The notes beneath the pieces were generated by a model. It was not told where the DNA came from. It saw only the letters and a program-made list of their open reading frames with translations, and did not search any database. A DNA stretch of 60,964 bases from Lentisphaerales bacterium (GTDB lineage Bacteria > Verrucomicrobiota > Kiritimatiellia > JAUXFM01), in assembly GCA_030622955.1 (NCBI GenBank), contig JAUXFM010000002.1:1-60964 (forward strand), written 5' to 3'. Every line of letters begins with the position of its first letter. The stretch's first letter is position 1. Of this stretch, positions 17,813 to 35,275 are shown in pieces. The position numbers were made by a program, and so were the translations under genes.

Positions 17813-17897
17813 TTTGCGCTTTCTTTACGTTCTTGTCAGCCCTTCGTAGCCATTGACGTAGCAGGGCGGCCATTCGTTCTCTGAAGCAAACGAATGT

Positions 17898-18976
17898 TCA
17901 ACTCATCACTTCTGCTTCATCGCCTCTTTTCCCGCCCCTTTCGGGCCGGCCCAATATTGCTGTCCTACGCCTGTCACCGGCTCGCGGCTCCCATCCAGCA
18001 TGGGGTTCGGCATATCTCATGAAGAACCCATCCAGCTTGCTCTTCAACTCTTCAAGCATCCCCTCTGCTTCCGACTGCCCGGAGAGATTCTTCGTTTCAC
18101 AGGGATCTTCTTTCAGGTTGTAAAGCTCGTGCGGCCCATAGACGTAGCGATGCACATACTTCCACTGTTCGGTCCGGATCATTCGCACCGGCCCGTACTC
18201 ATCAAAGACAACGACATTGTCACGGCGTTCGATCTTCTCACCTTTCAACAATGGCGCAAAACTCTTGCCCGGCAATTTGTCAGCTTCGGGATTGTTGAGT
18301 CCCACGTTTCCTCGGGGTGGTTGACACGATTCAACGGAGTGTGCGGCGCAGTGTAATGGACCCCCAGATAGAATGGCGTGTCAGAATCCTTCTGCTGCTC
18401 AAGAAATCGAAGCGCGTTGTTCGTAAAATGGTCCGTGATATACTCCGGCTCCAATGCTACCTCACCATCCTTGATAATCGGCGCGTTGTAGTATCTGCCG
18501 CCGCCCTTGGCGTGCGCTTCCCGGAATGTGTAACCTTTCTGCGCGTGATGCGCATCGCCCATGTGCCATTTGCCGCTCAGGCCACACACGTATCCATCGG
18601 CTGCCAGGATGTCCTTATAGCCCGGCATGCCTGCCAAGTATTCAATCAGCTCGCCCGTTTGTTCAGTCACCAGCTTCTCATCTGCGGCTGCATTCCATTT
18701 CTCGATGGTCGTATTGCCGTGGCATAGCCGGTCGTGGACAGCGTGCTGTGAGGGAATGCGGCCTGTCATGATCAATGCACGTGCCGTCGAGCAGGCGGGT
18801 GACGCGCAAAAGAAATTCTCGTAACGTATGCCTGTAGCTGCGATACGATCGAGGTTGGGTGTTTTGATCTCGCTGTTGCCTGCACAACCCATGGCCCATG
18901 GATCCTGATCAGCGATCAGGATGAAAAGGATGTTAGGCTTGGCCGAGGGGTTCAGAGTTCGTGACTCGGAGCTCAT
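17898..18976 (-). pseudogene. sulfatase pseudogene (frameshift plus internal deletion, degenerate FGly motif)
   Basis: Two overlapping ORFs (18245..18976 and 17898..18305) carry the N- and C-terminal sulfatase parts. The junction reads ...YTAPHTPLNRVNHPEE / GLNNPEADKLPGKSFAPLL. The central TSD(H/Q)G segment is missing. The motif reads C-S-T-A-R instead of CxPxR. Confidence 0.75.
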
Positions 18977-18988
18977 TATCGCGTTTCC

Positions 18989-20428
18989 TTAATGTAGAAT
19001 ATCATTCGGCACTGCCAGTGAATGGAAGCCGGGCCATTGGCCGCGCAGTTCCTGTTCCGTAGGAGTCGGGCGAACCGGCAGATCGCCATGCTCGAGCCAC
19101 TCGTCGTTCACGCGTTTCATTTCATCAATCAATGCCTGGCGCAACTCCGCCTTCTTTGCCGCCATCGACTCATCATTCGCCAGGTTGTTCTGCTCCATGG
19201 GATCGGTCTCCATATCGAACAACAGCTCTTCCCCGCCGTGATAGCAGTAGTGGTACTTATACTGCCCGTCATGTACGGCATAGTATTCCTCGCATTGACC
19301 AAAGAAATGCGAGCGGGCCTGCTCCCCGCGCGCCACGGCCATGAGGTCCAGCCCGTCACATTCCTCTCCCACCTGAACATCGGCACCCGCGGCCGCAAGA
19401 CAAGTCCTGTAGACATCGGCCGGTATTGCGAATGAATCGCATGTGGTTCCCTTCATCTCTGCCGGCATCATCGATGCCGGTGGCCGAACGAGCATCGGTA
19501 CGTGAGCGGAGCCTTCCAGGAAGCGTGATTTGGCGCCAAGATGATGGTCGCCCAGGAGGTCGCCATGATCGGACGTAAAGATAATGAACGTGTTGTCCAA
19601 CAGATCCATTTCACGCAGCCGTGCAATCAGACAACCAAGATTGTAATCTACCTGCGTAATGCAGGCGTAGTAGGCACGACGCGCATCACGGATCAGTTCC
19701 GGGCTGAACCGATCGCAGTTGTTGAGGACAAGGGTGTCTTTCTTCCACCCGGTCGGGATGCTTGAAGCATCTTCCGACCAATCACCGTAGACGGGTTCGG
19801 GCACGGTCGCGTTCTGATACATCAGCCAATACGAGAGACAGGGATCGTAGGGCGGATGTGGTTTCGAGAAACTTGCCCAGAGAAAGAATGGGCGGCTGTC
19901 ATCACGTGTTTCGATAAAATCGACCGACCGGTCCACGATCCAATGTGTCAGGCTATTGGTTTCGTCAACTGTGGAAATGCCCGGCGCCATCTCGTTCTGG
20001 CCCAGTCCCGTGTTTGCGGGAGTGCCTTTTTCCGGATGGCGCGCCATGTAGCGATAGTAATCCTCCAACAACTCCATGTGCTCAAAACCATAGTTAGAGC
20101 GCTTCGGCTTGAAGTGCATTTTGCCCTGAGCCCGTGTCTGGTAGCCGGCTTTTGTCAGCACGCCCGGCAGGCTCGTCTCTGCGTTGATGGGCTTCACTTT
20201 CTCCGTGTTATAGGTCAGGCCAGAACGATAGCCATGCTTTCCGTTCATGATCGTGGCGCGAGTAGGAATGCAAAGGGGCGCATCACTGTAACAGCGCGAG
20301 AACCGGATTCCGTTATCAACCAGCCAATCGAGGTGTGGTGTACGTATATGCGGATTCCCTGCCGCATGAATCGTGTCAAAGCGTTGCTGATCAGTTGTTA
20401 TTAACAGGATGTTAGGTTTTGGCTTCAT
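18989..20428 (-). CDS. Cys-type sulfatase, no signal peptide
   Basis: MKPKPNILLITTDQQ, CIPTR in PLCIPTRATIMNG, and IFTSDHGD. Confidence 0.92.
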   Translation of the reverse strand: MKPKPNILLITTDQQRFDTIHAAGNPHIRTPHLDWLVDNGIRFSRCYSDAPLCIPTRATIMNGKHGYRSGLTYNTEKVKPINAETSLPGVLTKAGYQTRAQGKMHFKPKRSNYGFEHMELLEDYYRYMARHPEKGTPANTGLGQNEMAPGISTVDETNSLTHWIVDRSVDFIETRDDSRPFFLWASFSKPHPPYDPCLSYWLMYQNATVPEPVYGDWSEDASSIPTGWKKDTLVLNNCDRFSPELIRDARRAYYACITQVDYNLGCLIARLREMDLLDNTFIIFTSDHGDLLGDHHLGAKSRFLEGSAHVPMLVRPPASMMPAEMKGTTCDSFAIPADVYRTCLAAAGADVQVGEECDGLDLMAVARGEQARSHFFGQCEEYYAVHDGQYKYHYCYHGGEELLFDMETDPMEQNNLANDESMAAKKAELRQALIDEMKRVNDEWLEHGDLPVRPTPTEQELRGQWPGFHSLAVPNDILH

Positions 20429-20936: not shown

Positions 20937-21890
20937 ATGGATCGTTCATGGGCAGACAGGCTTGAATATATCGGTATCGCTGTTGAAGAACCCGGATATC
21001 ATGTATGGGGATCATCGCCAATCATTGGGCCAGAAGGAAATACCAACCTCTTTGTTGCACGTTGGCCGACTTCGGCCCCATTTACTCCAGGGTGGCATAC
21101 TCATTGCGAAATCGCCCTCTACATGAGCGAGAAACCTGAGGGGCCATTTACCTTCAAGGAAATCGTTCTCAGTGGAACAGAGGAAGACTCATGGGATAGA
21201 CTGGCGCCTCACAATCCAACGATACATAAAGTCGGCACCCAATATGCCCTCCTTTATATAGCGAATACCGGAGAAGGGTTTCCCGCTTCTCAACGGATCG
21301 GCATGGTCGTGTCAAAGAATATCGATGGGCCATGGAAGAAAGTCGGTAAAGACGGGCTTATACTTTCTCCGCCGGATAATCCGTCAGTTTGGTGCCATGG
21401 AAGTACGGTTGGGGTCAACAATCCCGCCCTTCTCAGTCGACCTGACGGTCGCTTCTTTCTCTATTTCAAGGCGATGCGTAAGGGAAATATTCGCCGCATG
21501 GGTGTGGCTATTGCCGAGAACCTTGAGGGTCCCTATGTTTTCCATGACAAACCTCTGACCAACAACAGGACAACCATTGAAGACGGATACGCATTTATAG
21601 AAGACAGAAGAACCTATCTCCTGACGACGGACAACCATAATGGGGCAGGTTTGTTGTGGATGTCCGACGATGGCATTACCTTCCACGATCCGGTCGTGGG
21701 ATTCGATCGGATGGAACAGTACATTCCGGAAGATATCGTGAAGGCAGCCACAAACTGCAGAGACAAGAAGTTCGAACGTCCACAGGTGCTTATCCAGAAC
21801 GGTCATCCTGCCTATCTATACATGCCATCAGGAGTGAACATTCGTGGCGGCAACGGTTCCTGCTCGTACGTCTTTAGAATCAATAAATAG
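20937..21890 (+). CDS. putative glycoside hydrolase, five-bladed beta-propeller type (GH43/117-like); family uncertain, no signal peptide
   Basis: 317-aa ORF with repeated propeller-like strands: HNPTIHKVGTQYALLYI, VNNPALLSRPDGRFFLYF, IEDGYAFIEDRRTYLLT. The family assignment was not verified. Confidence 0.5.
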   Translation: MDRSWADRLEYIGIAVEEPGYHVWGSSPIIGPEGNTNLFVARWPTSAPFTPGWHTHCEIALYMSEKPEGPFTFKEIVLSGTEEDSWDRLAPHNPTIHKVGTQYALLYIANTGEGFPASQRIGMVVSKNIDGPWKKVGKDGLILSPPDNPSVWCHGSTVGVNNPALLSRPDGRFFLYFKAMRKGNIRRMGVAIAENLEGPYVFHDKPLTNNRTTIEDGYAFIEDRRTYLLTTDNHNGAGLLWMSDDGITFHDPVVGFDRMEQYIPEDIVKAATNCRDKKFERPQVLIQNGHPAYLYMPSGVNIRGGNGSCSYVFRINK

Positions 21891-22132: not shown

Positions 22133-23845
22133 CTACTTCGCCCTCAATCGTTTCGTCTCATTTTCACCACCGTTGATCAGATGCATCAACGGGACGGGTC
22201 GGTCGGTTTCGGAGATGAATTGCGGACGTTCCTGCCAGGGCGCCACGGAAATGACGTTGGTCAAGTCCATCCAGTACTGAAGTCTCGCGACCTCCAACCC
22301 CCAGATCATATGGAAATGGTTCGCAGGCGCGAACTGCTTGTATTCTTCCATTGAAGCATATTTCGGCACCACCCAGCTGTGCGGCCACGTAACATTCGAG
22401 CTGTTCGCAACGGCACAAGCCAGCTTCTTCGGCATATCCACCGTAGTCGCTTCATCCCATATCATGCTGAACATGCCGTTGAGCTGACTGAACGCCAACC
22501 TGCCGGCAATACCTTCAATGCCGCCCGGAGAAATGAAACTGACACTGTTCCCTCCGCCCGGGAAGTAATATAACTCCGCGCCAGGCAACGAAACATTTTT
22601 CATGATCTTGCTCATGGATGTGCCGGGTTTTGCCGCCCAGTCGAGACTGGCCGATCCGGAATTGTCACCGTCGACAATCCCGCGCTTCGCCCATACCTCC
22701 TGCCCCCTGCATTTGACTTTGAGCTTCTTCGCCAGCTTCCTCAGCTCTGCCGGCATCCAGACCTTCCGGAAGTCCATGAAGAGCGGAGGATTACCACCGG
22801 ACAACCACGACATAAAGAGCATCGTCAGGAGTCCCTGAACATCTGCCTCCGTGGCGAAGGGACAGACTTCTTTCGGCCCGTTATGGTCGAAGCTCGAGTT
22901 CATGAGCGATTCCGCAAGGTCACAGATTGGTAGAGGGATCCCACGCGGTTCACTGCCCCACTCCAACTGGTTCATGAATCCGCCACCGACGGCATTATGA
23001 TCCTTCACGAGATCACGCATGATCAGATACATCGCAAGCGACTGATCGAATAACTTGGAACCGTTCGGTTGCGACATGTCAAGACGCTTGCCGACATGCT
23101 TATCCACCCAGCTTCGCAAGTCTTTCAGTTCCTTCTTGTTATACGCACCCTTATTCAGCATGTCGGCCAAAAGCTTCATGTCGAGCCGAGAGATCTCGAT
23201 CCCGAACGTATTGCGGGTAGGCAGCACATGTGCGAGCGCTGTTTCCATGCCCATGGAATCGTGACCAAACACTACAACTCTGCGCCCCTGCAATCCAACA
23301 ACCGTGAGCGCGGCGTAACACCAATCGACCAATGCTTTAACGGTCTCAGCCGACGGTTTCGGATTCATCCCGGTGTCAGGCCATGTCCCGACGTTGAGAT
23401 GGGTCAAGCGACCCGACTGAGCAAGAGCGCCGTTCAGCGCATGTGCGAACACAACACCAGGCTTCGGCGCACTGTTGCCACAGGTTATGTTGACAGGCGT
23501 GTTCTCGGGAAACTGGGCTATCAGGCTCATGAAGGAAAGCTGCGGGAATGCCCATGTATCCGGTGTGCAGACGATGGTATTAACACCTGCATCCTTGAAT
23601 TCTGCGGCAACCGCATCAGCCTGGCGCTCATTATCGATCAGGGTCGAAGTCCAGACAACATCAACGGGGCTGCCGTCCGGCATCCGCACTTCCTTAGCCA
23701 TGATATTGGCAATCGTCTCCACGATATTGATCGCGCGTTCGCGCGAAGGCTTATCAATACGTGGATCACCCGCCGCCACTACACCAAATGTGACCGCTTT
23801 TGCCTTTGCCAAGCTGCTTCCCTTGAGTTTCCTTGCTTCAATCAT
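22133..23845 (-). CDS. fucI: L-fucose isomerase family protein
   Basis: Colinear by eye with E. coli FucI, including LMNSSFDHNG, FATEAD, FMDFRKVW, NVTWPHSW and ANHFH, the regions that hold the FucI Mn ligands as I recall them. ATG 23845 lies 9 nt after GAGGAG. Confidence 0.85.
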   Translation of the reverse strand: MIEARKLKGSSLAKAKAVTFGVVAAGDPRIDKPSRERAINIVETIANIMAKEVRMPDGSPVDVVWTSTLIDNERQADAVAAEFKDAGVNTIVCTPDTWAFPQLSFMSLIAQFPENTPVNITCGNSAPKPGVVFAHALNGALAQSGRLTHLNVGTWPDTGMNPKPSAETVKALVDWCYAALTVVGLQGRRVVVFGHDSMGMETALAHVLPTRNTFGIEISRLDMKLLADMLNKGAYNKKELKDLRSWVDKHVGKRLDMSQPNGSKLFDQSLAMYLIMRDLVKDHNAVGGGFMNQLEWGSEPRGIPLPICDLAESLMNSSFDHNGPKEVCPFATEADVQGLLTMLFMSWLSGGNPPLFMDFRKVWMPAELRKLAKKLKVKCRGQEVWAKRGIVDGDNSGSASLDWAAKPGTSMSKIMKNVSLPGAELYYFPGGGNSVSFISPGGIEGIAGRLAFSQLNGMFSMIWDEATTVDMPKKLACAVANSSNVTWPHSWVVPKYASMEEYKQFAPANHFHMIWGLEVARLQYWMDLTNVISVAPWQERPQFISETDRPVPLMHLINGGENETKRLRAK

Positions 23846-23922
23846 TATCTGCACTCCTCTTCAGTTTCGGATTTCGGAATGTGAATTTCGAATTTGACAG
23901 TAACCGGTCTACCGAACAGTGT

Positions 23923-25407
23923 CTATGCTCCCGTAAGCGCGTGAAAACATTCATAAGCCTTCTCGAAATCTGCTCTGTCCGTCGGCTCGTAATTGATCGG
24001 TTCAAAGGATCTCTTCATCAGCTCCTTGCCATCTTCCCTCGTCGCCAAGGCACCGGCAGCCATCATCTGAACGATGATATTGCCAGCCGAAGATGCCTCA
24101 ACGGGACCGGCGATCACCGTGCGATTGATCGCATTGGCTGTGAGTTGGCTGAGCATAACATCCTTTATCCCGCCGCCAACGATATGCAACACATCTATTC
24201 TCCTGCCAGTAAGCTTCTCAAGATTGCTGAACACGGTCCGACATCTGAAGGCGAGGCTTTCCAGTGCAGTTCTGGCGAACTGACCCGGCGTTTCAGGAAC
24301 AGGTTGATCCGTTCGCACACAGTAATCTCTGATGCGTGCTGGCATGTCACCCGGTGTTGTGAAAGATGGATCGTCAGGATCAATAAAAGACCTGAACGGT
24401 TCCGATTCCTGAGCAAGCTTGCCTATCTCGCCGAAATCCATCTCGCTCCCCGCTTCCGCCCACGCGCGCCTACACTCCTGCAGTATCCAGAGCCCCGTAA
24501 TGTTCTTGAGCAGACGGATCGTGCCTCCCACGCCGCCTTCGTTCGTAAAGCCGAAATCGTAGGCACTATCGCTAACAACCGGTTCCGCAGACTCGATCCC
24601 CATGAGTGACCAGCTCCCTGAACTCAGATACGCGTACGAATCGCTCTCAGCGGGAACCGCAGCAACCGCAGATGCTGTATCGTGACCTCCGACAGCAACC
24701 ACATTGACATTCTGCAGGCCGGTCGCTCCCTGGATCTCGGGCAAAATGGGTCCCAGACAAGTACCAGGCTGCGTGATGTCGCCAAACAGATGGGTCGGGA
24801 TGCCCATCTTCGCCATCATGCCGGTCGCCCAATCACGCTTCCTCACATCTAGCAGTTGTGACGTACTGGAGATCGTGTATTCGTTGGTTGCTACGCCGCT
24901 CAGCATGTAATTCACAAGATCCGGGGTAAAGAGCAGGCGCGAAGCTTTCTTCAATTCCTGACGACCCGCCACCACTTCTGAAAGAATTTGGAAAAGGGTG
25001 TTGAAGAACATGAACTGGATGCCCGTCGTTTCATATATCTCACGGCGCGGCACCCGCTTGCAGGCCTCTTCCTCCATCTTCTCAGTGCGTGGATCCCTGT
25101 AGGCGAAGGGCATGTCGATGAGCTTGCCGGATTCATCAAGCAAGCCATAGTCAACACCCCATGTGTCGACGCCAACGCTGACAATGTCTTTACCAAACTT
25201 CGCTGCGGCTGCCTTAAACCCTGTCTTGATTGACTGCAACAAAACATCGAAATCCCATCGAAATGATCCATCTCGCTCCTGCGGCTGGTTCTCAAATCGA
25301 TGCACTTCTTCGATCGCAAGCTTCTCACCATCGTAGATGCCGGCCATGACACGACCGTTCGATGCACCAAGGTCTGCTGCAAGATAGACCTTACGGGTAT
25401 CCGCCAT
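23923..25407 (-). CDS. rhaB: FGGY-family sugar kinase, rhamnulokinase-like
   Basis: AADLGASNGRVM, VGVDTWGVDYGLLD, AYRDPRT and GIQFMFFNTLFQ parallel E. coli RhaB. Its ATG shares one nt with the deoR stop codon (TAATG). Confidence 0.85.
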   Translation of the reverse strand: MADTRKVYLAADLGASNGRVMAGIYDGEKLAIEEVHRFENQPQERDGSFRWDFDVLLQSIKTGFKAAAAKFGKDIVSVGVDTWGVDYGLLDESGKLIDMPFAYRDPRTEKMEEEACKRVPRREIYETTGIQFMFFNTLFQILSEVVAGRQELKKASRLLFTPDLVNYMLSGVATNEYTISSTSQLLDVRKRDWATGMMAKMGIPTHLFGDITQPGTCLGPILPEIQGATGLQNVNVVAVGGHDTASAVAAVPAESDSYAYLSSGSWSLMGIESAEPVVSDSAYDFGFTNEGGVGGTIRLLKNITGLWILQECRRAWAEAGSEMDFGEIGKLAQESEPFRSFIDPDDPSFTTPGDMPARIRDYCVRTDQPVPETPGQFARTALESLAFRCRTVFSNLEKLTGRRIDVLHIVGGGIKDVMLSQLTANAINRTVIAGPVEASSAGNIIVQMMAAGALATREDGKELMKRSFEPINYEPTDRADFEKAYECFHALTGA

Positions 25408-26186
25408 TACTTCTTCCCTCCCGGCGCAGGAACCTTCGAGGTCTTCACCCCCATCTTCTCAACTCCAGCGAGAAAGTCTGCCGATGTGTCGCTGTCGGTA
25501 ATGAACTCAGTGAACTCGATGAGCGAACATATCTGGCAAAAAGAACGAACGCCCAGCTTGCTGCTGTCCGCCAGCAGTATCTTCTGCTCGGCATTCTCAA
25601 CCATCAACCTACGCAGGTTCGCCTGCTCCTCAGTACCGTCACTTATTCCGTGTTCAAGATCGACCCCCTGACAGGACAGGAAGAGTTTATCCACATGATA
25701 GCCGGCCAGTTGCTGTTCGGCTGTAGGGCCAACGAAAGAAAGAGAGCGCTCAACCAGTCTGCCACCCAGAACAAAGACATCAATCATCTTTCGCGATGAT
25801 AGAACAAGGGCAATCTGCGCTGAGTTTGTGATGACCGTGATCGGCATGTCGGACATTCCTTTCGCCATGTGCCATGCAGTAGTACTCGCATCAAGGAGTA
25901 TGCGGTCACCTTCTTTTACCTTATTTAGGGCGAGATCAGCGATCGCGTTCTTCTCTTCTTCGTGGACGGCCTCACGCCAGGCGAACGGCATCTCTCGTTG
26001 ATTTACATCGCTCGATACTGCACCCCCGTGACTACGGACCACGCGCCCCACGTCTTCAAGTTTCGCTAGGTCTCTGCGAATCGTCTCTTCCGTCACTCCA
26101 AAGCGCCCGGCCAGATCGGTGACCTTCGCGCTGCCTGCGCTCTCAATTACCTCCACGATCTCCCTGTGTCTCTCGACGGCCAGCAT
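25407..26186 (-). CDS. DeoR-family transcriptional regulator
   Basis: N-terminal HTH KVTDLAGRFGVTEETIRRDLAKLE plus a DeoR-C sugar-phosphate-binding-type C-terminus. ATG 26186 lies behind GAGGGAG. The ORF-track start at 26201 is TTG. Confidence 0.88.
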   Translation of the reverse strand: MLAVERHREIVEVIESAGSAKVTDLAGRFGVTEETIRRDLAKLEDVGRVVRSHGGAVSSDVNQREMPFAWREAVHEEEKNAIADLALNKVKEGDRILLDASTTAWHMAKGMSDMPITVITNSAQIALVLSSRKMIDVFVLGGRLVERSLSFVGPTAEQQLAGYHVDKLFLSCQGVDLEHGISDGTEEQANLRRLMVENAEQKILLADSSKLGVRSFCQICSLIEFTEFITDSDTSADFLAGVEKMGVKTSKVPAPGGKK

Positions 26187-26209
26187 GCGCAACTCCCTCA
26201 ACTGTGGGC

Positions 26210-26241
26210 AAATGTCTGTTTCTGCCCGAAAATGTCTTTTT
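26210..26241. promoter_or_regulatory. direct repeat AAATGTCTGTTT / AAATGTCTTTTT (20-bp phasing) in the divergent deoR / PHP-operon control region; candidate operator
   Basis: Read directly: 26210-26221 and 26230-26241 match at 11 of 12 positions. The location is between divergent start codons. Regulator binding is inference. Confidence 0.3.
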
Positions 26242-26307
26242 ATGTTTGAAATTACAAGGAGAATATGAGATTTTCATTGCTGGCGTGGCAAAAATCCAAA
26301 AGAAGGT

Positions 26308-26330
26308 GCCCGAAAATGCCCGAAAATGCC
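26308..26330 (+). repeat. 10-bp tandem duplication GCCCGAAAAT x2.3 spanning the likely PHP-gene start codon
   Basis: Read directly: gcccgaaaat gcccgaaaat gcc. A third copy of GCCCGAAAATG lies at 26224-26234. Confidence 0.9.
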
Positions 26331-27527
26331 GTAAACATGCATGTCCATACGACCTACTCGTACAATGCGTACGGATATACACCGGCCGGCTATGCCGAAC
26401 TGGCTCTCGAAGCCGGTCTGGAAGTTGCCGGAATCGTTGACTTCGATGTGCTTGATGGCCTCAACGAATTCAGGGCCGCAGGCCAAGACCAAGGTCTCAA
26501 AACCTGTGTCAGCCTCGAGTCGCGCGTCTTCGTGCCGGAGTTCGCCGACCGCGTGATTAACTCGCCGGGCGAGCCGGGCATCGCCTATCACATGGGAATC
26601 GGCTTCACCACAACAGATCTGACCGCAACTGCTACCTCCTTTCTGGAAAATATGCGTCAGCGTGCATCTGCTCGCAACAGGGAACTGGTCGCACGCGTCA
26701 ACGCCTTCATGTCACCAGTTGAACTCGACTACGACAATGACGTCATACCTCTCACGCCCACAGGCAACGCAACAGAGCGACACATCTGTCTCGCATACGC
26801 GAACAAGGCAGTAGCACAGTTCGATTCTGCCGAATCTCTTTCGACATTCTGGCGTGAGAAGCTCGGGACGAACGATCTGGATCTTCCCAACGGCCCGCAT
26901 ATCCAGAGCTTCATCCGATCGAAAACAATGAAACGGGGTGGGATCGGATACGTTCAACCTGGCTCAGGCTCTTTCCCAACAATGAAAGAGATGAATGAGT
27001 TCGTCCTTGCGGCTGGCGCCATCCCTTGCTTCACCTGGCTGGATGGCACATCACCAGGAGAACAAGCCATCGAAGAACTTTTTGATGTCGGCATCGCTAC
27101 CGGCGGGGCGTTCCTTAACGTCATCCCCGATCGCAATCTCCAGGGTGGCACAGCGTCCAATCTCTGTGATGTTATCAAGCTGGCTCGCTCGCTAGACATG
27201 CCGGTAATCGCCGGCACCGAGATGAACAGTCCCGGCACACGTTTTGTCGACGACTTCGATTCCCCTGAACTTGCCCCCCTACTCCCTGAGATCCATCGTG
27301 GTTCCCTCATCGCCTATGCGCATTCTGCACTCCAGGCGCAGGCAGGGCTGGGCTATCTCAGCGAATGGGCTACCAACAACTTCAACAGCATCGCCAACAA
27401 GAACAGCTTCTATGAAAAGATTGGCGCAGGCCTTGATCCATGCAAGGAATCGCTTCTCTCAAAGGCCAACAGTTCGTATCAACCGCCCCGAATCCTTTCA
27501 TTGCTCGAGGAGACCGATGATGAATAG
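26316..27527 (+). CDS. PHP-domain (polymerase/histidinol-phosphatase-like) metal-dependent phosphoesterase
   Basis: MPENAVNMHVHTTYSYNAYG is a typical PHP N-terminal HxH motif. The start is ambiguous: ATG 26265 or ATG 26316. Confidence 0.7.
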   Translation: MPENAVNMHVHTTYSYNAYGYTPAGYAELALEAGLEVAGIVDFDVLDGLNEFRAAGQDQGLKTCVSLESRVFVPEFADRVINSPGEPGIAYHMGIGFTTTDLTATATSFLENMRQRASARNRELVARVNAFMSPVELDYDNDVIPLTPTGNATERHICLAYANKAVAQFDSAESLSTFWREKLGTNDLDLPNGPHIQSFIRSKTMKRGGIGYVQPGSGSFPTMKEMNEFVLAAGAIPCFTWLDGTSPGEQAIEELFDVGIATGGAFLNVIPDRNLQGGTASNLCDVIKLARSLDMPVIAGTEMNSPGTRFVDDFDSPELAPLLPEIHRGSLIAYAHSALQAQAGLGYLSEWATNNFNSIANKNSFYEKIGAGLDPCKESLLSKANSSYQPPRILSLLEETDDE

Positions 27528-29160
27528 CGGCATCCCAAAAACACAACGTGCCATCCAGCTCATTGGTGTCGACGAGCTGCGTCTGAAACAGGATAAGCCA
27601 GTCCACCGATGCGGACCCTACCAGGTCCTCGCAAAGGTCGAAGTCGCAGGACTCTGCTTCTCCGACCTCAAACTGCTGAAGCAGTTTTCCTCTCACATCA
27701 GGAAATCAGAAATCGTCTCCGGCATCGATCTCGAACTGCTCAAGGAGATCCCGAGCTACGTGCCCGGCGATGCAGCGGTCGTTCCCGGCCATGAAACGGT
27801 TGTACGTATCGTAGAAGTTGGTGAAAAGGTCGAGGGTATAGCACCAGGCGACCGGCGCCTCGTGCAAACAGACTACCGCTGGATCAAAACTGCGCAATCG
27901 AACGCAGCATTCGGATACACCTTTGAAGGCGGCCTGCAGGAATACGTACTCATGGACATGCGGATCATCACCGATCCCGATGGGGAGAATATGCTTATAC
28001 CCGCATCGGAAGAACTCTCCGCTTCCTCAATAGCACTCGTCGAGCCCTGGGCCTGTGTCGAAGACGCATACGTTACAGTCGACCGCAATACGTTGAAAAA
28101 AGGCGGAAACTGCCTGGTCGTCAACATGCCTGATGATGCGAAAGACAAGCTAAGAAGCTTCCTTGTCGATCAGCCAATGTCCGCATCAATGCATTGTATT
28201 GACGGCATGCCGAACAAGTTAGCCGATAACAGCATTGATGATCTCCTTTTCTACGGAACCGATGCCGACCTGCTCGAGAAACTGTTCGACAAGATGGCGC
28301 CTGGCGGGCGGGTCATCCTCATGCAATGTGGCGACACCTTCGCGCGCGACGTGGTTACGCCGGTCGGCCGTATCCACTACACCGCCCTGCGGATATCCGG
28401 CACAGTGGGCAATGACCCCCAAAAGGCCTTGTACACACCGCCCAGCGCGGAGATCAGACCGAACGATCGGATAGATATCGTTGGCGCAGGTGGCCCGATG
28501 GGCACAATGCACGTCATCCGCGATATCTGCCAGGGCGTTCCGGGTGTAAACATCTTTGCCGGGGATATGAGTAACGAACGCCTTGCCGCGCTTTCAGAAG
28601 TCGCCATCCCATTGGCCACAACCAACAAGGTTGGCTTTGAAACGTACAACGCAAAATTGAATCCGCCAGCTGACCCGTTCGACCACATAGCAATAATGGT
28701 CCCCGCCCCGGCTCTTGTTGCACAGGCAATAGAACGCTGTACCAGCAATGCTATGATCGATATTTTTGCGGGCATCCCAGTGACCGTCTACCACCCGCTC
28801 AACCTTAACGACATTATCTCCAAACAGATTTACATGTTCGGCACGAGCGGATCGGCAATGAGTGACATGCGAGTCGTACTCGACAAGGTTTCCGCCGGCA
28901 ACCTCAACACGGACCTTTCAGTGGCCGCAATCTCAGGCCTGGACGGCGCTGCCGAAGGCATGAAGGCGGTCGAACACCAGCAGATAATTGGCAAGGTCGT
29001 TGTCTATCCTGCATGTCATGGCCTTGGCTTGACGAAACTCGAGGATCTGGAAGACTCATTCCCGACCGTTGCTGCCGCACTGGAGAAGGGCAAATGGACC
29101 ATGGCAGCCGAAGATATTCTTCTCCGATTATTCAGAAATGGAGGAAACGGCAATGACTGA
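27517..29160 (+). CDS. atypical long zinc-type MDR alcohol/polyol dehydrogenase (547 aa)
   Basis: GroES-like part with GLCFSDL and PGHETVVRIVEVG. The glycine motif IVGAGGPMG appears only ~390 aa in, and the C-terminus is the MDR type ...IIGKVVVYP. ATG 27517 overlaps the PHP gene by 11 nt. The ORF-track start at 27244 was rejected. Confidence 0.8.
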   Translation: MMNSGIPKTQRAIQLIGVDELRLKQDKPVHRCGPYQVLAKVEVAGLCFSDLKLLKQFSSHIRKSEIVSGIDLELLKEIPSYVPGDAAVVPGHETVVRIVEVGEKVEGIAPGDRRLVQTDYRWIKTAQSNAAFGYTFEGGLQEYVLMDMRIITDPDGENMLIPASEELSASSIALVEPWACVEDAYVTVDRNTLKKGGNCLVVNMPDDAKDKLRSFLVDQPMSASMHCIDGMPNKLADNSIDDLLFYGTDADLLEKLFDKMAPGGRVILMQCGDTFARDVVTPVGRIHYTALRISGTVGNDPQKALYTPPSAEIRPNDRIDIVGAGGPMGTMHVIRDICQGVPGVNIFAGDMSNERLAALSEVAIPLATTNKVGFETYNAKLNPPADPFDHIAIMVPAPALVAQAIERCTSNAMIDIFAGIPVTVYHPLNLNDIISKQIYMFGTSGSAMSDMRVVLDKVSAGNLNTDLSVAAISGLDGAAEGMKAVEHQQIIGKVVVYPACHGLGLTKLEDLEDSFPTVAAALEKGKWTMAAEDILLRLFRNGGNGND

Positions 29161-29965
29161 TAGACCTCTGGAAGGCCAACGCGTGGTCATCACCGGCGGT
29201 GCGCAGGGACTCGGCGAAGCACTTACCGAACGACTTGCCCGTGAAGGTTGCGACATTGTCATAGGCGACATCAATGGTGACGGCGCAGAGGCCGTCGCAA
29301 CACGTATTGCCAGTGAAACAGATCGCAAGATCCTGGCTACATGCGTCGATGTAACAAACGAAGCAGCTGTGAAGCTGCTCTTTGATATGGCGGCCAAGAA
29401 ACTTGGTGGTGTCGATATCGCCATATCGAACGCGGCCATCCTGATCGCAGAGCCAGTCGTCGACGCAGATGCAGAAAAATGGCGTGCCGTGATGAACGTG
29501 AACTTATTCGGCAACTTCCTAGTCACACGTGAAGCGTGTCGCGTGATGAAGAAACAGGGCAGCGGATCCATAATTCAGATCAATTCCAAGTCGGGCAAGA
29601 AGGGTAGCGCCCGCAACTCGGCATATGCCGCATCCAAGTTCGCCGGCATCGGGCTCATCCAGAGCGTGGCCATTGAAATGGCAGAATTTGGCATTCGCTG
29701 CAACGCTATTTGTCCCGGCAACCTGCTGGACGGTCCGCTCTGGACGGACCCTGCGAAGGGATTGTTCGTCCAGTACCTCGAGGCAGGCAAAGTACCAGGC
29801 GCAAAGACAATTGATGATGTGAGAGAACATTACGTTAACCAGGTCCCGATGAAACGGGGCTGCACCTACAAGGATGTCGAAAATGCGGTCATCTTCCTGG
29901 CCTCGCAACAATCATCATACATGACAGGTCAGGCGATCAACGTTACCGGCGGACAGCAGATGTAG
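29153..29965 (+). CDS. SDR-family dehydrogenase, sorbitol-6-phosphate 2-dehydrogenase (SrlD)-like
   Basis: VVITGGAQGLG, IIQINSKSGKKGSARNSAYAASKFAGIGL, VPMKRGCTYKDV and YMTGQAINVTGGQQM closely parallel E. coli SrlD as I recall it. GGAGGA lies 7 nt before ATG 29153. The gene overlaps the MDR gene by 8 nt. Confidence 0.88.
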   Translation: MTDRPLEGQRVVITGGAQGLGEALTERLAREGCDIVIGDINGDGAEAVATRIASETDRKILATCVDVTNEAAVKLLFDMAAKKLGGVDIAISNAAILIAEPVVDADAEKWRAVMNVNLFGNFLVTREACRVMKKQGSGSIIQINSKSGKKGSARNSAYAASKFAGIGLIQSVAIEMAEFGIRCNAICPGNLLDGPLWTDPAKGLFVQYLEAGKVPGAKTIDDVREHYVNQVPMKRGCTYKDVENAVIFLASQQSSYMTGQAINVTGGQQM

Positions 29966-30147
29966 GAGGAGCTGGCAGTGTTCAGTGTTCAGGAAAGAGT
30001 AAGGCAGAGGTTAATGAAGAGGCAGAGTAATAGCCACAAGAGGATGCAAGATGTGCAACGAATGTGCTCGCCGACAGGTAAGCCATTCATCGTGCCCTGT
30101 TTCTGTGCTTTCCTGTGGCCATTGGTTTTTCAGTGGAGGAGCGAATA

Positions 30148-31461
30148 ATGGCTACGGCGATAATGATGCCCAGACAGGGACAATCGGTCGAGAGTTGTGT
30201 TCTCGTCGACTGGCTCGTCTCAAGAGGCGATGAAGTTAAAGAGGGCCAAGTCCTCGCGAACATCGAAACGGACAAGGCTGTCTTCGAACTGGAGTCGCCC
30301 GCTGCCGGAACAATAGTCGATCTCTTTTTTGAAGAAGGCGACGATATTCCCGTACTCATCAATATCGGCGCCATAGGATCGCAGGGAGAAGACGTTGATG
30401 ATTTGAGACCCGACCCCACGACCCTTGCGGCAGCACAGACCGAAACACAGACTACTGAAGCACCATCGTCCAGTGCCCTGCCTGCCCCATCATCTGGCGC
30501 TACGGCCCCGCCCGCTGCAGGGGGCGGCGGCGGCATCAGCCCACGCGCACGCAATGCCGCTGCAAGAGGCGGCGTAAACGTTAACACGCTCGCAGGAACA
30601 GGACCCGGCGGCCGCATCATAGAGCGTGATGTTCTGAACGCTGCAGCAAATATGCCGCATATGAATCGGGCCGCCGCTGAAGCTGCAAGCCAAGGCATGA
30701 CAGCACCAGCCCAGGGTTCGGGACCCGGCGGAATGGTGCTGGCTCGAGATCTGAAAGCCCCAGCCGAAGGCGCTGTTGGCAAGCCACTCTCGGGGATCAG
30801 GAAGCTGATCGCAGGGCGCATGCATCAGTCGCTGGCCACAACGGCCCAGCTCACCCTCCACATGAGTTTCAATGCAACGGCGATCATGACATGCCGGGCA
30901 CATGTGAAAGAAAAAGGCAAATCGCTCGGACTGCCCAACATCACGATCAACGATATACTTGCCTACAATACGGTAAAGACACTCGTGGAATTCCCTGAAA
31001 TGAATGCGCATTTCCTAGGCAACCGCATTGCACAATATCCGGACGTGAACATGGGAATTGCGACCGATACCGAACGTGGGCTCATGGTGCCAGTTGTACA
31101 TGGAGCAAATAACCTATCCCTGGCTGAGTTCTCCGTGAAGGCGAAACAGATCCTGAAAGACGCACAGGCGGCAAGCATCAATCCCGATCTCCTGAGTGGC
31201 GGCACTTTCACCATCACGAACATGGGCATGCTGGGAATCGAGAAGTTCACCCCGATTCTCAACGCACCGGAGGTAGGCATCCTCGGTGTAGGATGTCCAC
31301 ACCTGCAGCCGGTCATGAGAGATGGAGAAGTGACACACATACAGGCAATTACACTGAGCCTGACGATCGACCACCAGGCCGTCGACGGGGCACCGGGCGC
31401 GAGATTCCTGAAGGAACTTTGCATGGCACTTGAGACTTTTGAACTAACGACTGGGGGATAA
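30148..31461 (+). CDS. dihydrolipoamide acyltransferase (E2) of a 2-oxoacid/acetoin dehydrogenase-type complex
   Basis: Lipoyl domain with ETDKA, an Ala/Pro/Gly linker, the subunit-binding domain ISPRARNAAARGGVNVNTLAGTGPGGRIIERDV, and a catalytic LTIDHQAVDG. GGAGGA lies 7 nt before ATG 30148. Confidence 0.9.
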   Translation: MATAIMMPRQGQSVESCVLVDWLVSRGDEVKEGQVLANIETDKAVFELESPAAGTIVDLFFEEGDDIPVLINIGAIGSQGEDVDDLRPDPTTLAAAQTETQTTEAPSSSALPAPSSGATAPPAAGGGGGISPRARNAAARGGVNVNTLAGTGPGGRIIERDVLNAAANMPHMNRAAAEAASQGMTAPAQGSGPGGMVLARDLKAPAEGAVGKPLSGIRKLIAGRMHQSLATTAQLTLHMSFNATAIMTCRAHVKEKGKSLGLPNITINDILAYNTVKTLVEFPEMNAHFLGNRIAQYPDVNMGIATDTERGLMVPVVHGANNLSLAEFSVKAKQILKDAQAASINPDLLSGGTFTITNMGMLGIEKFTPILNAPEVGILGVGCPHLQPVMRDGEVTHIQAITLSLTIDHQAVDGAPGARFLKELCMALETFELTTGG

Positions 31462-31466
31462 ACACC

Positions 31467-32813
31467 ATGGAATACGATATCATTATTGTTGGCGCAGGAC
31501 CGGGCGGCTACGTCGCCGCAGAACGGGCCGGAGAACAGGGACTCAAGGTCCTGCTGGTAGAAAAGAACGAACTGGGCGGCGTCTGCCTGAATTGTGGCTG
31601 CATACCATCCAAGACGCTCCTGAATTCAGCCAAGGTCTATCATTACGCAACTCATGGCGATGCCTATGGCGTGACGACCACCGGCACGGAGTTCAATCTC
31701 AGCACCGTGATGAACCGCAAGCATAAGGTAATCGAAACATTGCGCAAAGGCGTTGCCGGCCTCATGAAACGAGCGAAGGTCGACATCGTGAACGGTGAAG
31801 CCGTATTCGAGTCGAACCGCAGCGTCAGGGTTGGCACTGAGATCTATGCGGGGCGCAACATCATAATCGCAACGGGCTCGTCCCCTGCCCGCCCACCGAT
31901 CCCGGGGATAGACAACGATTGCGTGTATGACTCCACGCGCCTGCTGGACATCGAGAAACTCCCTGAGAAGCTGGTGGTTGTCGGCGGCGGCGTTATTGGC
32001 TGCGAATTCGCCTGCTTCTTCGGAACACTCGGCATACCGGTCACAGTTATCGAAATGCTTCCCGAGATATGTCCTGCAGTCGACCCGGAAATCGCCGGAA
32101 TCCTTCGCAAGGAACTCTCACACCGCAACATCACCTTCCATGTGAATGCTCTGGTGGAGGAGATCGGCAAGGGCTCGGTCACCTTCTCCGTAAACGAGAA
32201 GCAGGAGAGCATCGATGCCGACTGCGTACTGGTCGCGACCGGTCGCACATGCAACGTTGAAGGCCTCGGGCTCGAGATGTTGAAGGTTGATCACGACAAG
32301 CGTGGGATCAAGATTGATGAACGATGCGCAACGAATGTGCCTAACATCTGGGCTATCGGCGACGTTACAGGCAAACAATGGCTGGCACACAGCGCATCAC
32401 GTATGGGTGAAGTGGTTGTCCACAATATCGCCGGGCGTGCTGATCGCATGCGCTACAACGCGATACCCGGCGTCATCTACACGTCGCCTGAAGTGGCTAC
32501 CGTGGGACTGACCGAGGAAGAGGCGAAGAGAACGAACATCCCCGTCAAGGTTGGCAAGATGCCTATGGGTGCAAGCGGACGTTTCCTCGCAGAGAACGAC
32601 AGGGGGCGCGGCGTCTGCAAAGCCGTAATACATGCGGACACAGGTGTATTGCTTGGCGTCCATATGATTGGTGGCGCCTGCTCCGAAATGGTCTACGGCG
32701 CTGCCACCATGATCGAAACAGAAATGCGAGTGAAGGAGATCGAGGAAATCGTCTTCCCGCATCCTACTGTTTCAGAACTAATTAGAGATGCATCGATAAC
32801 GACAAGGAGTTAA
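31467..32813 (+). CDS. lpdA: dihydrolipoyl dehydrogenase (E3)
   Basis: [11 protein letters not shown] and the redox disulfide [13 protein letters not shown]; 448 aa. Confidence 0.93.
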
Positions 32814-32818
32814 GAGAA

Positions 32819-35275
32819 ATGCCCAAGCATCAGATAGTTGACCCGACACAGGAACGCAAGCCAGGCAAGCTCGAATTCCCCGAAGTGCCGCTAAACGCTT
32901 ACGACGGCACCATTGCCGATGAACTGAAGAATCTTGGCAAGGATGCCCTGCTCGGCATGCTCGAGGACATGCTGCTCATCCGTGAGTTCGAGAACATGCT
33001 CAACGAGATAAAGACTGCAGGAGTCTATGAAGGTGTCGAGTACGATCATAAAGGACCAGCTCATCTCTCCATGGGCCAGGAAGCTTCATCGGTGGGACAG
33101 GCATTCCATCTTACCGTAGACGATCACATATTTGGCTCGCATCGATCGCACGGCGAGATCCTCGCTAAAGGCATGTCGGCTATCCGCAAGCTTGATGACA
33201 AATCGCTTCTCGCCATCATGAAGGAATTCATGGGCGGCGAATGCCTCAGCATAGTTGAAAGCAACATCAAAACCTCATCCGTAAAGGATCTGGGACGGCA
33301 GTTCCTGGTTTATGGCGCACTCGCTGAAATCTTCGGGCGTAAGCCCGGCTTCAACCGCGGGCTTGGCGGCTCGATGCATGCATTTTTCACGCCGTTCGGC
33401 ATCTATCCGAACAACGCTATCGTCGGAGGATCGGCAGATATCGCCACTGGCGCAGCACTGTTCAAGAAGATCAATCGCAAACCTGGCATAGTAATCGGGA
33501 ACATAGGCGATGCCTCGATGGGTTGTGGACCAGTGTGGGAAGCGATCAACTTCGCCGCGATGAGCCAGTTCACAACACTGTGGGAAGATGAGATGAAAGG
33601 CGGATTGCCGATCATCATGAACTTCATGAATAACTTCTACGGCATGGGTGGGCAGACCTCGACCGAAACCATGGCGTACGACGTTCTTGCCCGTATGGGT
33701 GCAGGCGTGAACTCTGACGCCATGCATGCTGAACGTGTCGATGGCTACAACCCTCTAGCAGTGGCCGATGCCATCAAGCGCAAACGCGCTATCATCGAAA
33801 AGGGCGAAGGCCCTGTTCTGCTCGACACGCTGACATATCGCTACTCGGGTCACTCGCCATCCGATGCCTCATCGTACCGGGGCAAGGACGAGATGGATCT
33901 CTGGCATAATGTCGATTCGATCGAATGGTTCTCCGGCGAACTCCAGGAAGCTGGTGCTATCGACAACAATGGCCTTGAAACAATAAAGCGAGACATTGTA
34001 AGCGTAACCGCATCTGCTTGCAGGCTTGCAGCTGATGACGCTATTTCGCCCAGAATACAGGCTTCCTTCATAGAAGACGTGATGTTTTCCAACAAGCAAC
34101 GTGACAGCTATGATGAAAGCCGCGAACCGGAGCTGCTTGAGGTAGGTGCGAACAACCCGCGCATCAAGCTGCTAAAGAAACGATCACGTGCCGGGATCGT
34201 TGACGGAAAACCTGCACCGAAGAACAAGGTCATCCAGTTCCGTGATGCTATCTTCGAGGCTGTCCTGCATCGCTTCAAGGAAGATCCTACTCTCGTGGCC
34301 TACGGTGAAGAGAATAGGGACTGGGGTGGAGCGTTCGCCTGCTATCGAGGACTGACCGAGGCACTCCCCTATCATCGCCTTTTCAATTCGCCAATCTCCG
34401 AGGCAGCAATCGTTGGAACAGCTGTCGGTTATGCGCTTGAAGGCGGGCGCGTACTCGCCGAGTTAATGTACTGCGACTTCATGGGACGGGCCGGTGACGA
34501 GATCTTTAACCAGATGAGTAAGTGGCAGAGCATGAGCGCCGGTGTCCTCGAAATGCCATTGGTCCTTCGCGTGTCGGTCGGTTCCAAGTACGGTGCGCAG
34601 CATTCACAGGATTGGACTGCACTGTGCAATCACATTCCAGGTCTGAAAATCTGTTTCCCGGCAACACCTTACGATGCCAAGGGCATGCTGAATACCGCTC
34701 TGCGCGGAAGCGATCCTGTTATCTTCTTCGAAAGCCAGCGGCTCTATGATATTGGTGAGCTGTTCGAACCGGAAGTGCCGGAGGGTTACTATGAAGTACC
34801 GTTCGGGCCGCCGGCAAAGCGGCGTGACGGATCCGACATCACGATCATTACGATTGGGGCAACGCTATACCGTGCACTCCAGGCGACCGACATACTGGAG
34901 CAAAAGCACGGACTAAAGGCCGATGTCTGGGATTGCCGTTCGATCAATCCACTCGACTACGAACCACTTGTGGAATCTGTCAAGAAGACAGGACGCCTGT
35001 TGCTTGCCAGCGACGCATGTGAGCGCGGGTCCGTGATGCAGAGCATTGCGCAGAACCTGTCACAGATGGCATTCGATGCACTGGATGCACCGCCTGTCGT
35101 GGTTGGGTCACGCAACTGGATCACGCCCTGTGCTGAGATGGAGGACAGCTTCTTTCCGCAACCCGAATGGATCCTGGACGCTATCCATGAACAGATCCTC
35201 CCCCTGCCGAGTCACCTTGTTACGAGCAATCAGACAACCGGTGAAGCAGTGCGAAGGGCGAGGATGGGAGTCTAG
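32819..35275 (+). CDS. fused E1 alpha-beta TPP-dependent dehydrogenase component (818 aa)
   Basis: The N-half is E1-alpha-like ([22 protein letters not shown]...MNNFYGMGG). The C-half is E1-beta-like ([14 protein letters not shown]..., [21 protein letters not shown]). AAGGAG SD lies upstream. Confidence 0.9.

Follow-up and report, generated by a model that had tools for sequence, protein, structure and literature searches.

A conserved gene module joining a PHP-fold protein, a long zinc-type dehydrogenase and a lipoamide complex in 6-deoxyhexose loci of Kiritimatiellia and other bacteria

The gene cluster described here was found on contig JAUXFM010000002.1 of a Lentisphaerales bacterium (assembly GCA_030622955.1; GTDB lineage Verrucomicrobiota; Kiritimatiellia; JAUXFM01), a member of the PVC superphylum, in a stretch of 60,964 nucleotides that is called the window below (61 kb; Pfam domains were scanned in its open reading frames (ORFs) of at least 180 aa). 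Nine genes at 22133-35275 form two divergent units, and a sequence-only reading of the same DNA had grouped them as a candidate new route for the deoxyhexoses fucose and rhamnose. The minus strand carries a FucI-like aldose-ketose isomerase (22133-23845; 570 aa as called in the protein collection, with the Fucose_iso_N1, N2 and C Pfam domains), a RhaB-type FGGY ketose 1-kinase (23923-25407; 494 aa) and a DeoR-family sugar-phosphate-type repressor (ORF 25407-26201, with its likely ATG at 26186; HTH_DeoR and DeoRC domains). The plus strand carries a PHP-fold metal-dependent protein (26316-27527; 403 aa), a long zinc-type medium-chain dehydrogenase/reductase (MDR) with an inserted alpha/beta domain (27517-29160; 547 aa; ADH_N domain) and a SrlD-like short-chain dehydrogenase/reductase (SDR; 29153-29965; 270 aa), followed by a lipoamide complex composed of the E2 dihydrolipoamide acyltransferase (30148-31461, start corrected; 437 aa; Biotin_lipoyl, E3_binding and 2-oxoacid_dh domains), the E3 dihydrolipoyl dehydrogenase (31467-32813; 448 aa) and a fused E1 alpha-beta thiamine-diphosphate component (32819-35275; 818 aa; E1_dh, Transket_pyr and Transketolase_C domains). 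Apart from small coordinate corrections, the sequence holds the nine genes, the 11-nt overlap of PHP with MDR, the 8-nt overlap of MDR with SDR and the repeat-bearing control region just as they had been read, and from the coordinates DeoR and the kinase also overlap, by 4 nt.

The two units face away from each other across a control region of about 129 bp (26187-26315) with direct repeats. TGCCCGAAAATG is present as three direct copies at 26223, 26307 and 26317, with no further exact copy elsewhere in the window, and a 20-nt tandem is seen at 26210/26230. Tandem-repeat symmetry has been reported for the operators of DeoR-family rhamnose regulators (PMC3870299), and by analogy with this pattern the TGCCCGAAAATG repeats can be taken as a putative DeoR operator. 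A non-coding gap of about 183 bp (29966-30147), which lacks TGCCCGAAAATG, separates the SDR from E2; in the nearest relatives this interval is occupied by a second DeoR gene, and the window's E2/E3/E1 complex may have lost its own regulator. Promoter and terminator scans returned signals at or under chance level and were discarded.

The entry steps are the most familiar part of the cluster. The isomerase scores 152.6 bits with the FucI equivalog model, far under the cut-off of 775, and is 24-26% identical to Escherichia coli FucI, and is therefore a distant member of the FucI family. The catalytic and Mn residues E337, D361 and H528 of the E. coli enzyme correspond to E336, D361 and H513, which are invariant in the window isomerase family; this family is 70-78% conserved across the Planctomycetes-Verrucomicrobia-Chlamydiae superphylum (PVC), Armatimonadota and other phyla, and one FucI-like homologue is adjoined by a GH29 fucosidase. 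The kinase reaches 484.4 bits with the rhamnulokinase model TIGR02627, just under the curated threshold of 527.95, and shares 38% identity with E. coli RhaB and 25% with FucK. Homology and the conserved residues support the prediction that the isomerase makes a 6-deoxyketose and the kinase a 6-deoxyketose 1-phosphate. A DeoR gene is found at the equivalent position in four related loci (L003, L004, L086 and L088).

The PHP protein gives only a weak Pfam PHP match (24.9 bits, gathering cut-off 26.4), and a sequence search against the PDB returned marginal matches only. Its AlphaFold2 (AF2) model (pLDDT, the model's confidence score, 91.8) has as best Foldseek matches the PDB entries 2yb1, 3o0f and 9etk, with probability 1.00 and a target TM-score of 0.70-0.72; the structural matches represent the Cv1693 3',5'-bisphosphate nucleotidase, BAD_1165 and the RNase AM branch of PHP phosphoesterases. 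In the alignment of the family, the invariant residues include H9 and H11 of the N-terminal HxH, E68, H92, E302, N304 and several arginines. In a mapping by eye against HPP and Cv1693, the third-metal positions presumably read N17, D44 and N304, and the C-terminal DxH presumably reads ExN. All public relatives that bear a source name are called 'hypothetical protein', and the dehydrogenase partner of PHP is always of polyol type, be it an MDR, an SDR or a mannitol-dehydrogenase-family protein. In L018 (~2331-4950) the kinase and PHP lie in one continuous 870-aa ORF, either a natural fusion or a sequencing error; a true kinase-PHP fusion would argue against PHP simply reversing the kinase reaction.

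The two dehydrogenases point to polyol and sugar-phosphate chemistry. The MDR, for which the protein collection contains over 4000 relatives (the best 61% identical), keeps as invariant residues C47, H92-E93 and E176, a zinc site of the polyol-dehydrogenase type, and its AF2 model (pLDDT 86.9) shows a zinc-alcohol-dehydrogenase fold like that of 2,3-butanediol, threonine and sorbitol dehydrogenases, with an extra alpha/beta domain at about residues 190-315. Some JGI annotations label its relatives 'L-sorbose 1-phosphate reductase'; no close relative was found on plasmids, the sole match being a Deinococcus protein at 27.6% identity. The SDR, with intact TGxxxGxG and YxxxK motifs, scores 294.8 with the sorbitol-6-phosphate dehydrogenase model NF009050 (cut-off 307). 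It is 41.9% identical to E. coli SrlD over the full length and 28% to the RhaW half of RhaEW, a lactaldehyde dehydrogenase, in agreement with its earlier placement, by eye, closest to sorbitol-6-phosphate 2-dehydrogenase. Its orthologues (64-71% identity) stand directly after the MDR in Verrucomicrobiota/Kiritimatiellia loci.

In the lipoamide complex, the lipoyl-lysine motif ETDKA and the catalytic motif DHQAVDG of E2 are intact, and E3 carries the redox disulfide motif CLNCGC and exceeds the TIGR01350 cut-off (512.6 against 408.8). E3 is the only component to pass, as E1 and E2 fall under every NCBIfam equivalog cut-off, those for pyruvate dehydrogenase (PDH) and oxoglutarate dehydrogenase included: the E1 beta half reaches 228.7 against 321 and the alpha half 188.5 against 393.85 with the PDH E1 models, and E2 reaches 249.9 against 445 and 260.9 against 722 with curated PDH models. 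The window E1 is 53-55% identical to the fused E1s of Rhizobium pRL8 and a Pleomorphomonas plasmid and 32-36% identical to ordinary split E1s, and its closest annotated relatives carry the depositor labels acoB or alpha-ketoacid dehydrogenase alpha/beta. These cut-offs, together with the nearness of E1 to fused E1s that have acetoin-type E2 parts, bear out the view that the three genes are not ordinary genes for a pyruvate or branched-chain ketoacid dehydrogenase. We also considered on grounds of synteny that they encode a housekeeping PDH, and rejected this for the window clade in the light of the DeoR control, the reciprocal co-occurrence described below, the existence of three E1 clades and the plasmid relatives; the E1 clade of planctomycetes may still be a housekeeping PDH. 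The fused E1s of loci with PHP and MDR fall into three mutually distant clades with 28-39% identity between them, a pattern that suggests repeated recruitment of such a complex.

The plasmid E1 loci are those of Rhizobium johnstonii 3841 pRL8 (L170, 12001-17649) and Pleomorphomonas pSM30-1 (L171), where E1 has as neighbours a 79-aa stand-alone lipoyl protein, an alpha/beta-hydrolase, sugar kinases, sugar ABC transporters, FucU/RbsD and a SorC/DeoR regulator. The Pleomorphomonas record uses the labels acoB, aceF and acoC, the last of these (acetoin cleaving system) for the alpha/beta-hydrolase protein. No PHP, MDR, SDR or aldolase was found in either cluster, and the pRL8 literature does not discuss the E1 cluster, which together with its counterpart looks like a separate uncharacterised sugar-cleaving system.

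The association of these families was followed in other genomes from both ends of the cluster. MDR relatives were scanned with one genome per species, and the neighbourhoods were counted in the best 80 loci. The MDR, as a PHP-MDR pair, occurs in at least 509 species genomes of Planctomycetota (Pirellulales, Phycisphaerae and Sedimentisphaerales), Verrucomicrobiota including Kiritimatiellae, and Armatimonadota. In 71 of the 80 loci the gene immediately before the MDR is PHP, in 49 an orthologue of the FGGY kinase immediately precedes the PHP-MDR pair, and in 42 an orthologue of RhaA (57-63% identical to the E. coli protein) comes just after the MDR; RhaT is found in 5 loci and FucI-like genes in 7. 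The common order in planctomycetes is rhaB, PHP, MDR, a glycosidase-like gene, rhaA and a transporter, and it continues with one of two endings, either a fused RhaEW-like gene, or an LsrF orthologue, a ribulose-phosphate-epimerase-like gene and split RhaW and RhaE, followed by E1alpha-beta, E2 and a FucI-like gene. The Armatimonadota loci have PHP, MDR, kinase and a FucI-like gene and no other recognisable gene within 10 kb. In L027 a perfect inverted duplication (<RhaA <c9 <MDR <PHP <KIN >KIN >PHP >MDR >c9 >RhaA) was seen, which is most likely an assembly artefact of the metagenome bin.

The reverse search returned 558 relatives of the window E1 in the metagenome scan, nearly all of them in the order DeoR>E2>E3>E1. 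Among the 21 E1-anchored loci with enough flanking DNA, PHP and SDR are each present in 16, MDR in 14 and all three in 13; FucU is found in 19 E1-anchored loci. In the nearest relatives (L003, L004/L083, L086 and L088) DeoR and the kinase are divergent from PHP, MDR and SDR, which are followed by DeoR, E2, E3 and E1, so that the divergent arrangement of the window is conserved among them. A more divergent group has DeoR>E2>E3>E1>PHP-like>SDR>FGGY>MDR as a single co-directional string; E1>E2>kinase>PHP>MDR are likewise co-directional in L016, L017 and L078, and L134 too is one co-directional string. In L082/L083 of Kiritimatiellia (4783-5818), a 126-aa ORF and an AbiEii-like toxin gene are inserted between the SDR and the second DeoR gene and break the conserved order.

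A marine group (L092-L125) shows another variant, PfkB kinase>PHP>mannitol-dehydrogenase-family>DeoR>E2>E3>E1>short class II aldolase-family>long MDR>SDR, with FucU on the opposite strand. Here PfkB replaces the FGGY kinase and PHP is followed by a 398-aa mannitol-dehydrogenase-family protein with Mannitol_dh domains (e.g., L097:2679-6348). The idea that this enzyme takes the place of the MDR turned out to be only partly true, as a distant 604-aa MDR without a Pfam match follows E1. An isomerase was sought in the marine group and was not identified.

Because it recurs in hundreds of genomes, the association goes far beyond chance, and the RhaA, RhaT, FucU and FucI-like genes found in the loci place the module in 6-deoxyhexose catabolism. 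The proposal that the two divergent units belong together in deoxyhexose catabolism is thus upheld by the kinase-PHP-MDR core of these loci. Comparative genomics shows the kinase, PHP, MDR, SDR and E2/E3/E1 to be one co-inherited seven-gene unit under DeoR-type regulation and dedicated to a sugar pathway.

The lack of an aldolase, which had been a main argument for a new route, holds for the window and not for the family. No ORF of the class II aldolase family was detected in six frames of the 61 kb by tblastn and HMM (hidden Markov model) searches, and FucO, RhaD and FucA had no match in the window, in which AldA was not searched for. Of the 28 MDR-anchored loci flanked by 6 kb or more of sequence in both directions, 18 contain aldolase-family genes (RhaE-like or FucA-like), 11 contain parts of E1/E2/E3, and 4 contain the complex and lack an aldolase-family gene. 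The closest relative, L086, has a RhaE-like gene at the position of the window's FucI-like gene and a second, FucA-like gene, L088 has an aldolase-family gene as well, and Verrucomicrobiia loci have a short aldolase-family gene after the SDR. The aldolase of the window organism may therefore be encoded elsewhere in its genome. PHP-MDR coexists with a canonical cleavage enzyme in many genomes and is not simply a substitute for it. We had also considered PHP and MDR as a simple replacement of RhaD in loci of the type rhaB-PHP-MDR-rhaA that gave no RhaD match; this was weakened when the pairs of ~400-aa proteins and the ~650-aa proteins in such loci proved to be split and fused RhaE/RhaW.

At least 16 rhamnose loci of planctomycetes (L012, L018, L039, L056, L058 and about 11 more; e.g., L058:15907-16803) contain an orthologue of LsrF. 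It is full-length, 59.8% identical to E. coli LsrF, scores 499 with NF006081 (cut-off 297) and usually adjoins a ribulose-phosphate-3-epimerase-like gene. Neither LsrK nor LsrG was found near the LsrF-like genes in the planctomycete loci.

Several known systems share parts with the window. The pairing of an MDR with a SrlD-like SDR beside a step that forms a ketose 1-phosphate recalls L-sorbose catabolism by SorE (MDR) and SorD/SrlD (SDR). SorE is a sorbose-1-phosphate reductase and SorD/SrlD a glucitol-6-phosphate dehydrogenase, a pair that moves the carbonyl between the ends of the sugar phosphate. The window MDR, likened to SorE by family and annotation rather than by direct comparison, is about 140 aa longer and has the extra domain, and the ketose phosphate would come from a kinase and not from a phosphotransferase system; with a 6-deoxy sugar as substrate, a methyl ketone would be formed instead of fructose 6-phosphate. 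The acetoin dehydrogenase system (AcoA/AcoB/AcoC/AcoL) likewise encodes a thiamine-diphosphate-dependent E1, a lipoyl E2 and an E3 together outside central metabolism, but the window has E1 as a single fused polypeptide, E2 with the classical lipoyl, peripheral-subunit-binding and catalytic domains, and DeoR regulation; no acetoin or butanediol genes and no AcoR-type regulator are present among its annotated ORFs. The Lsr pathway of autoinducer-2 degradation (LsrK, LsrG and LsrF) also uses an FGGY kinase on a deoxy sugar-like substrate, and its LsrF recurs in planctomycete loci; it ends with acetyl-CoA and dihydroxyacetone phosphate (DHAP), whereas the sugar of the window has six carbons.

With the fucPIKUR/fucAO and rhaBAD systems of E. 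coli the window and its relatives share the FucI-family isomerase (RhaA in relatives), the FGGY ketose 1-kinase and sugar-specific regulation, and FucU and RhaT occur in related loci. The window differs in its isomerase, only about 25% identical to FucI, in lacking a FucA/RhaD aldolase and a FucO match, and in holding a PHP protein, a long MDR, a SrlD-like SDR and E1/E2/E3, none of which belongs to the E. coli pathways. RhaEW-type rhamnose clusters of Bacillus and Chloroflexus (PMC3870299) have in common with it a DeoR regulator with direct repeats and a RhaB-type kinase, and RhaE/RhaW genes, fused or split, occur in relatives of the window. A RhaE domain is absent from the window, and RhaEW clusters as described include neither PHP nor MDR nor a lipoamide complex. 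The PV/pvm microcompartment route, which likewise has a DeoR regulator (PvmA), handles these sugars in the same phyla and faces the same problem of toxic lactaldehyde, yet the module relies on soluble dehydrogenases and a lipoamide complex instead. No microcompartment shell gene or acylating aldehyde dehydrogenase was seen among the window ORFs of at least 180 aa, a size range that leaves out small shell-protein-sized ORFs.

We regard the module as a real, conserved and uncharacterised extension of deoxyhexose catabolism, and offer its chemistry as a hypothesis. Tentatively, and at somewhat less than an even chance, we read the cluster as a DeoR-controlled catabolic island for 6-deoxy-L-hexoses of the L-fucose/L-rhamnose type, working through a C5 ketone and an acetoin-type cleavage. 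The MDR and the SrlD-like SDR would act on the 6-deoxyketose 1-phosphate and place the keto group at C5, beside the terminal methyl, and may also reduce C2 by way of a 6-deoxyalditol 1-phosphate, as SorE/SrlD do for sorbose. The thiamine-diphosphate/lipoamide complex would then cleave the C4-C5 bond of the resulting methyl alpha-hydroxyketone into acetyl-CoA, NADH and a four-carbon sugar phosphate. The same type of cleavage is applied to acetoin by acetoin dehydrogenase, which gives acetyl-CoA and an aldehyde, and by this analogy it is plausible, as had been suggested from the sequence, that E1 cleaves a hydroxyketone derived from a ketose. The PHP-fold metalloenzyme would act on a phosphorylated intermediate or product. 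L-rhamnulose 1-phosphate and L-fuculose 1-phosphate are C4 epimers with no other difference, and oxidation at C5 with cleavage between C4 and C5 would therefore merge both sugars into one product; such merging would account for the use of a single kinase and a single downstream set with both RhaA and FucI-like isomerases. One downstream route could in this way serve both sugars, with no free lactaldehyde released.

The resemblance of the MDR, SDR and mannitol-dehydrogenase-family proteins to polyol and sugar-phosphate enzymes and the acetoin-type affinity of E1 suggest this C5-ketone scheme, and the LsrF orthologue of planctomycete loci and the absence of a class II aldolase from the 61 kb of the window are consistent with it. 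LsrF releases acetyl-CoA from a methyl-ketone sugar phosphate. In a wider form, PVC bacteria, Armatimonadota and perhaps some alpha-proteobacteria would possess an undescribed, lactaldehyde-free pathway for L-fucose and L-rhamnose in which sugar-phosphate dehydrogenases yield a methyl-ketone sugar phosphate, E1-E2-E3 convert it to acetyl-CoA and a tetrose-type phosphate, and PHP catalyses a new reaction; this too we rate at less than an even chance. Several points weigh against the scheme. Every step after the kinase is inferred, PHP is left without an explained role, and the analogy with LsrF would suit a 2,4-diketone formed by C4 oxidation better than a C5 ketone. As four-carbon product one would expect D-threose 4-phosphate or L-erythrose 4-phosphate and not D-erythrose 4-phosphate, so a further step would be needed. 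As 18 of the 28 loci and the closest relatives have aldolase-family genes, most carriers of the module could use canonical cleavage. In eleven planctomycete loci, kinase, PHP, MDR and RhaA are combined with a fused RhaEW-like gene while E1/E2/E3 are absent from the DNA in range, from which it follows that PHP-MDR has a role independent of the complex. The planctomycete E1 clade also passes the PDH E1-beta subfamily cut-off (340.5 against 321), which fits pyruvate as its substrate.

Some of these observations feed a conventional explanation. A class II aldolase encoded elsewhere, for example in a microcompartment locus, would yield DHAP and L-lactaldehyde, and pyruvate would arise from the latter through lactate by the action of the SDR, perhaps with help from the MDR; E1/E2/E3 would then serve as a pyruvate dehydrogenase induced by the sugar, and PHP as an accessory phosphatase. 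This explanation draws on the aldolase-family genes of most related loci, the nearest included, and on the PDH-like score of the planctomycete E1 clade. RhaW belongs to the SDR's family, and the window SDR gives 181.6 bits with the bifunctional RhaD_aldol-ADH model; rhamnose regulons are reported to reach lactate dehydrogenases and so give pyruvate (PMC3870299), and an aldolase is encoded in PV-type microcompartment loci of related bacteria (PMC8857213). However, the explanation offers no role for PHP-MDR, the most conserved pair, and the MDR, the SrlD-like SDR and the mannitol-dehydrogenase-family protein are unlike lactate dehydrogenases. The window E1 and E2 stay under the PDH cut-offs, the fused E1s with which E1 groups are accompanied by acetoin-type E2 parts in aldolase-free sugar clusters, and repeated independent recruitment under DeoR control would be odd if it served pyruvate oxidation alone. 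We hold this explanation to be unlikely, though far from negligible. The LsrF orthologue opens a different course, which we think decidedly unlikely: the MDR would oxidise the C4 hydroxyl to a 2,4-diketone, again merging fucose and rhamnose, and a retro-Claisen split would yield DHAP with either L-lactate, if PHP acts hydrolytically, or lactoyl-CoA, if an LsrF-like thiolase does, the SDR and E1/E2/E3 carrying the C3 unit to acetyl-CoA. LsrF is known to act on a 1-phospho-2,4-diketone with an acetyl group where the diketone proposed here has a lactoyl group, the two being otherwise alike, and the orthologue lies well above its equivalog cut-off in loci without LsrK or LsrG. The overlap of the PHP and MDR genes, the metal-hydrolase fold predicted for PHP and the loci where PHP-MDR would have to be self-sufficient for want of E1/E2/E3 are in keeping with C4 oxidation too. 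Yet no PHP-family enzyme is known to cleave C-C bonds, the characterised members being known as hydrolases of phosphoesters; the course would duplicate RhaE/RhaW where both are present, gives the SrlD-like SDR and the mannitol-dehydrogenase-family protein no clear role, and has no LsrF-like gene to call upon in the window.

A polyol shunt would make use of the phosphoesterase fold modelled for PHP and of the polyol-type dehydrogenase that always stands beside it. Kinase, sugar-phosphate reductase and phosphatase form the pattern of known polyol synthesis, as for mannitol and sorbitol, and the kinase, dehydrogenase and PHP might in the same manner yield free fucitol or rhamnitol from the 6-deoxyketose by way of 6-deoxyalditol 1-phosphate, the product serving as an electron sink or intermediate and E1/E2/E3 acting separately. 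This would spend ATP without carbon gain in a clearly catabolic, transporter-linked locus and would leave the tight linkage of E1/E2/E3 unexplained, and we judge it very improbable. That two unrelated operons are adjacent by chance is hardly credible: the 183-bp gap between SDR and E2, filled by a second DeoR gene in relatives, allows that the complex is a separate transcription unit, but the co-localisation recurs in several phyla and from both search directions, involves three different E1 clades and takes the form of single co-directional strings in L016, L017, L078 and L134. A scheme like methionine salvage, with an aldolase-family dehydratase, an enolase-phosphatase and a 2-oxoacid, was dropped on paper as too elaborate, and no dioxygenase gene was noticed among the annotated genes.

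We found no paper describing a PHP/MDR/E1 module, in line with the earlier remark that the gene association is not known from any described pathway, and searches for fucitol or rhamnitol phosphate, for LsrF with rhamnose and for acetoin dehydrogenase with deoxy sugars gave nothing relevant. The comparative study of rhamnose pathways makes no mention of Planctomycetes, Verrucomicrobia or PHP proteins (PMC3870299), and studies of PVC bacteria take the aldolase/microcompartment route as given (PMC8857213, PMC11958385). Both of the fucoidan-degrading Pontiella strains use fucose and rhamnose for growth, although fucK was identified in neither and aldA remained unidentified in one (PMC7356697).

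Sulfated polysaccharides rich in fucose and rhamnose make up a large pool of marine carbon that is degraded slowly, with Verrucomicrobiota, Kiritimatiellia and Planctomycetota as specialist degraders. The use of the monomers by these bacteria is currently modelled on the aldolase route of E. coli together with the microcompartment. The module, present in hundreds of species, holds two families without an assigned function and a dedicated lipoamide complex. If the C5-ketone scheme is true, the complex would be the first of the 2-oxoacid-dehydrogenase type known to cleave a sugar phosphate, and the pathway a major overlooked route for the carbon of algal fucoidan and rhamnan. A functional assignment would change the predicted carbon and energy yield, with acetyl-CoA and a C4 phosphate instead of lactaldehyde/propanediol, as well as the view of how lactaldehyde toxicity is avoided and the annotation of thousands of genes. 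Thiamine-diphosphate-dependent cleavage of deoxy sugar phosphates might also find biotechnological use on seaweed sugars.

As for the rest of the window, five sulfatase ORFs lie on the minus strand at 12440-20428, directly upstream of the module; one of them (18245-18976, 243 aa) spans no more than the N-terminal portion of the sulfatase domain and is possibly truncated. The array is followed by a GH43-like ORF (20937-21890), and an AraC-family gene is found downstream of the module. The sulfatases had been taken as a sign that sulfated deoxyhexose polymers are used, but sulfatase or GH43 genes stand beside the module in none of the 80 related loci, and the AraC-family gene is likewise not conserved in them. 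Towards the 5' end (1755-8536) the window encodes a PPDK-N-domain protein, glutamate dehydrogenase and a monomeric isocitrate dehydrogenase, and a 459-aa ORF without a Pfam match is found at 9007-10386. At the 3' end (56424-60639) there is a Bat-like operon consisting of BatA/VWA, DUF58 and a MoxR-type AAA ATPase, which is preceded by several very large ORFs (977-1037 aa) that show hardly any Pfam signal or none.

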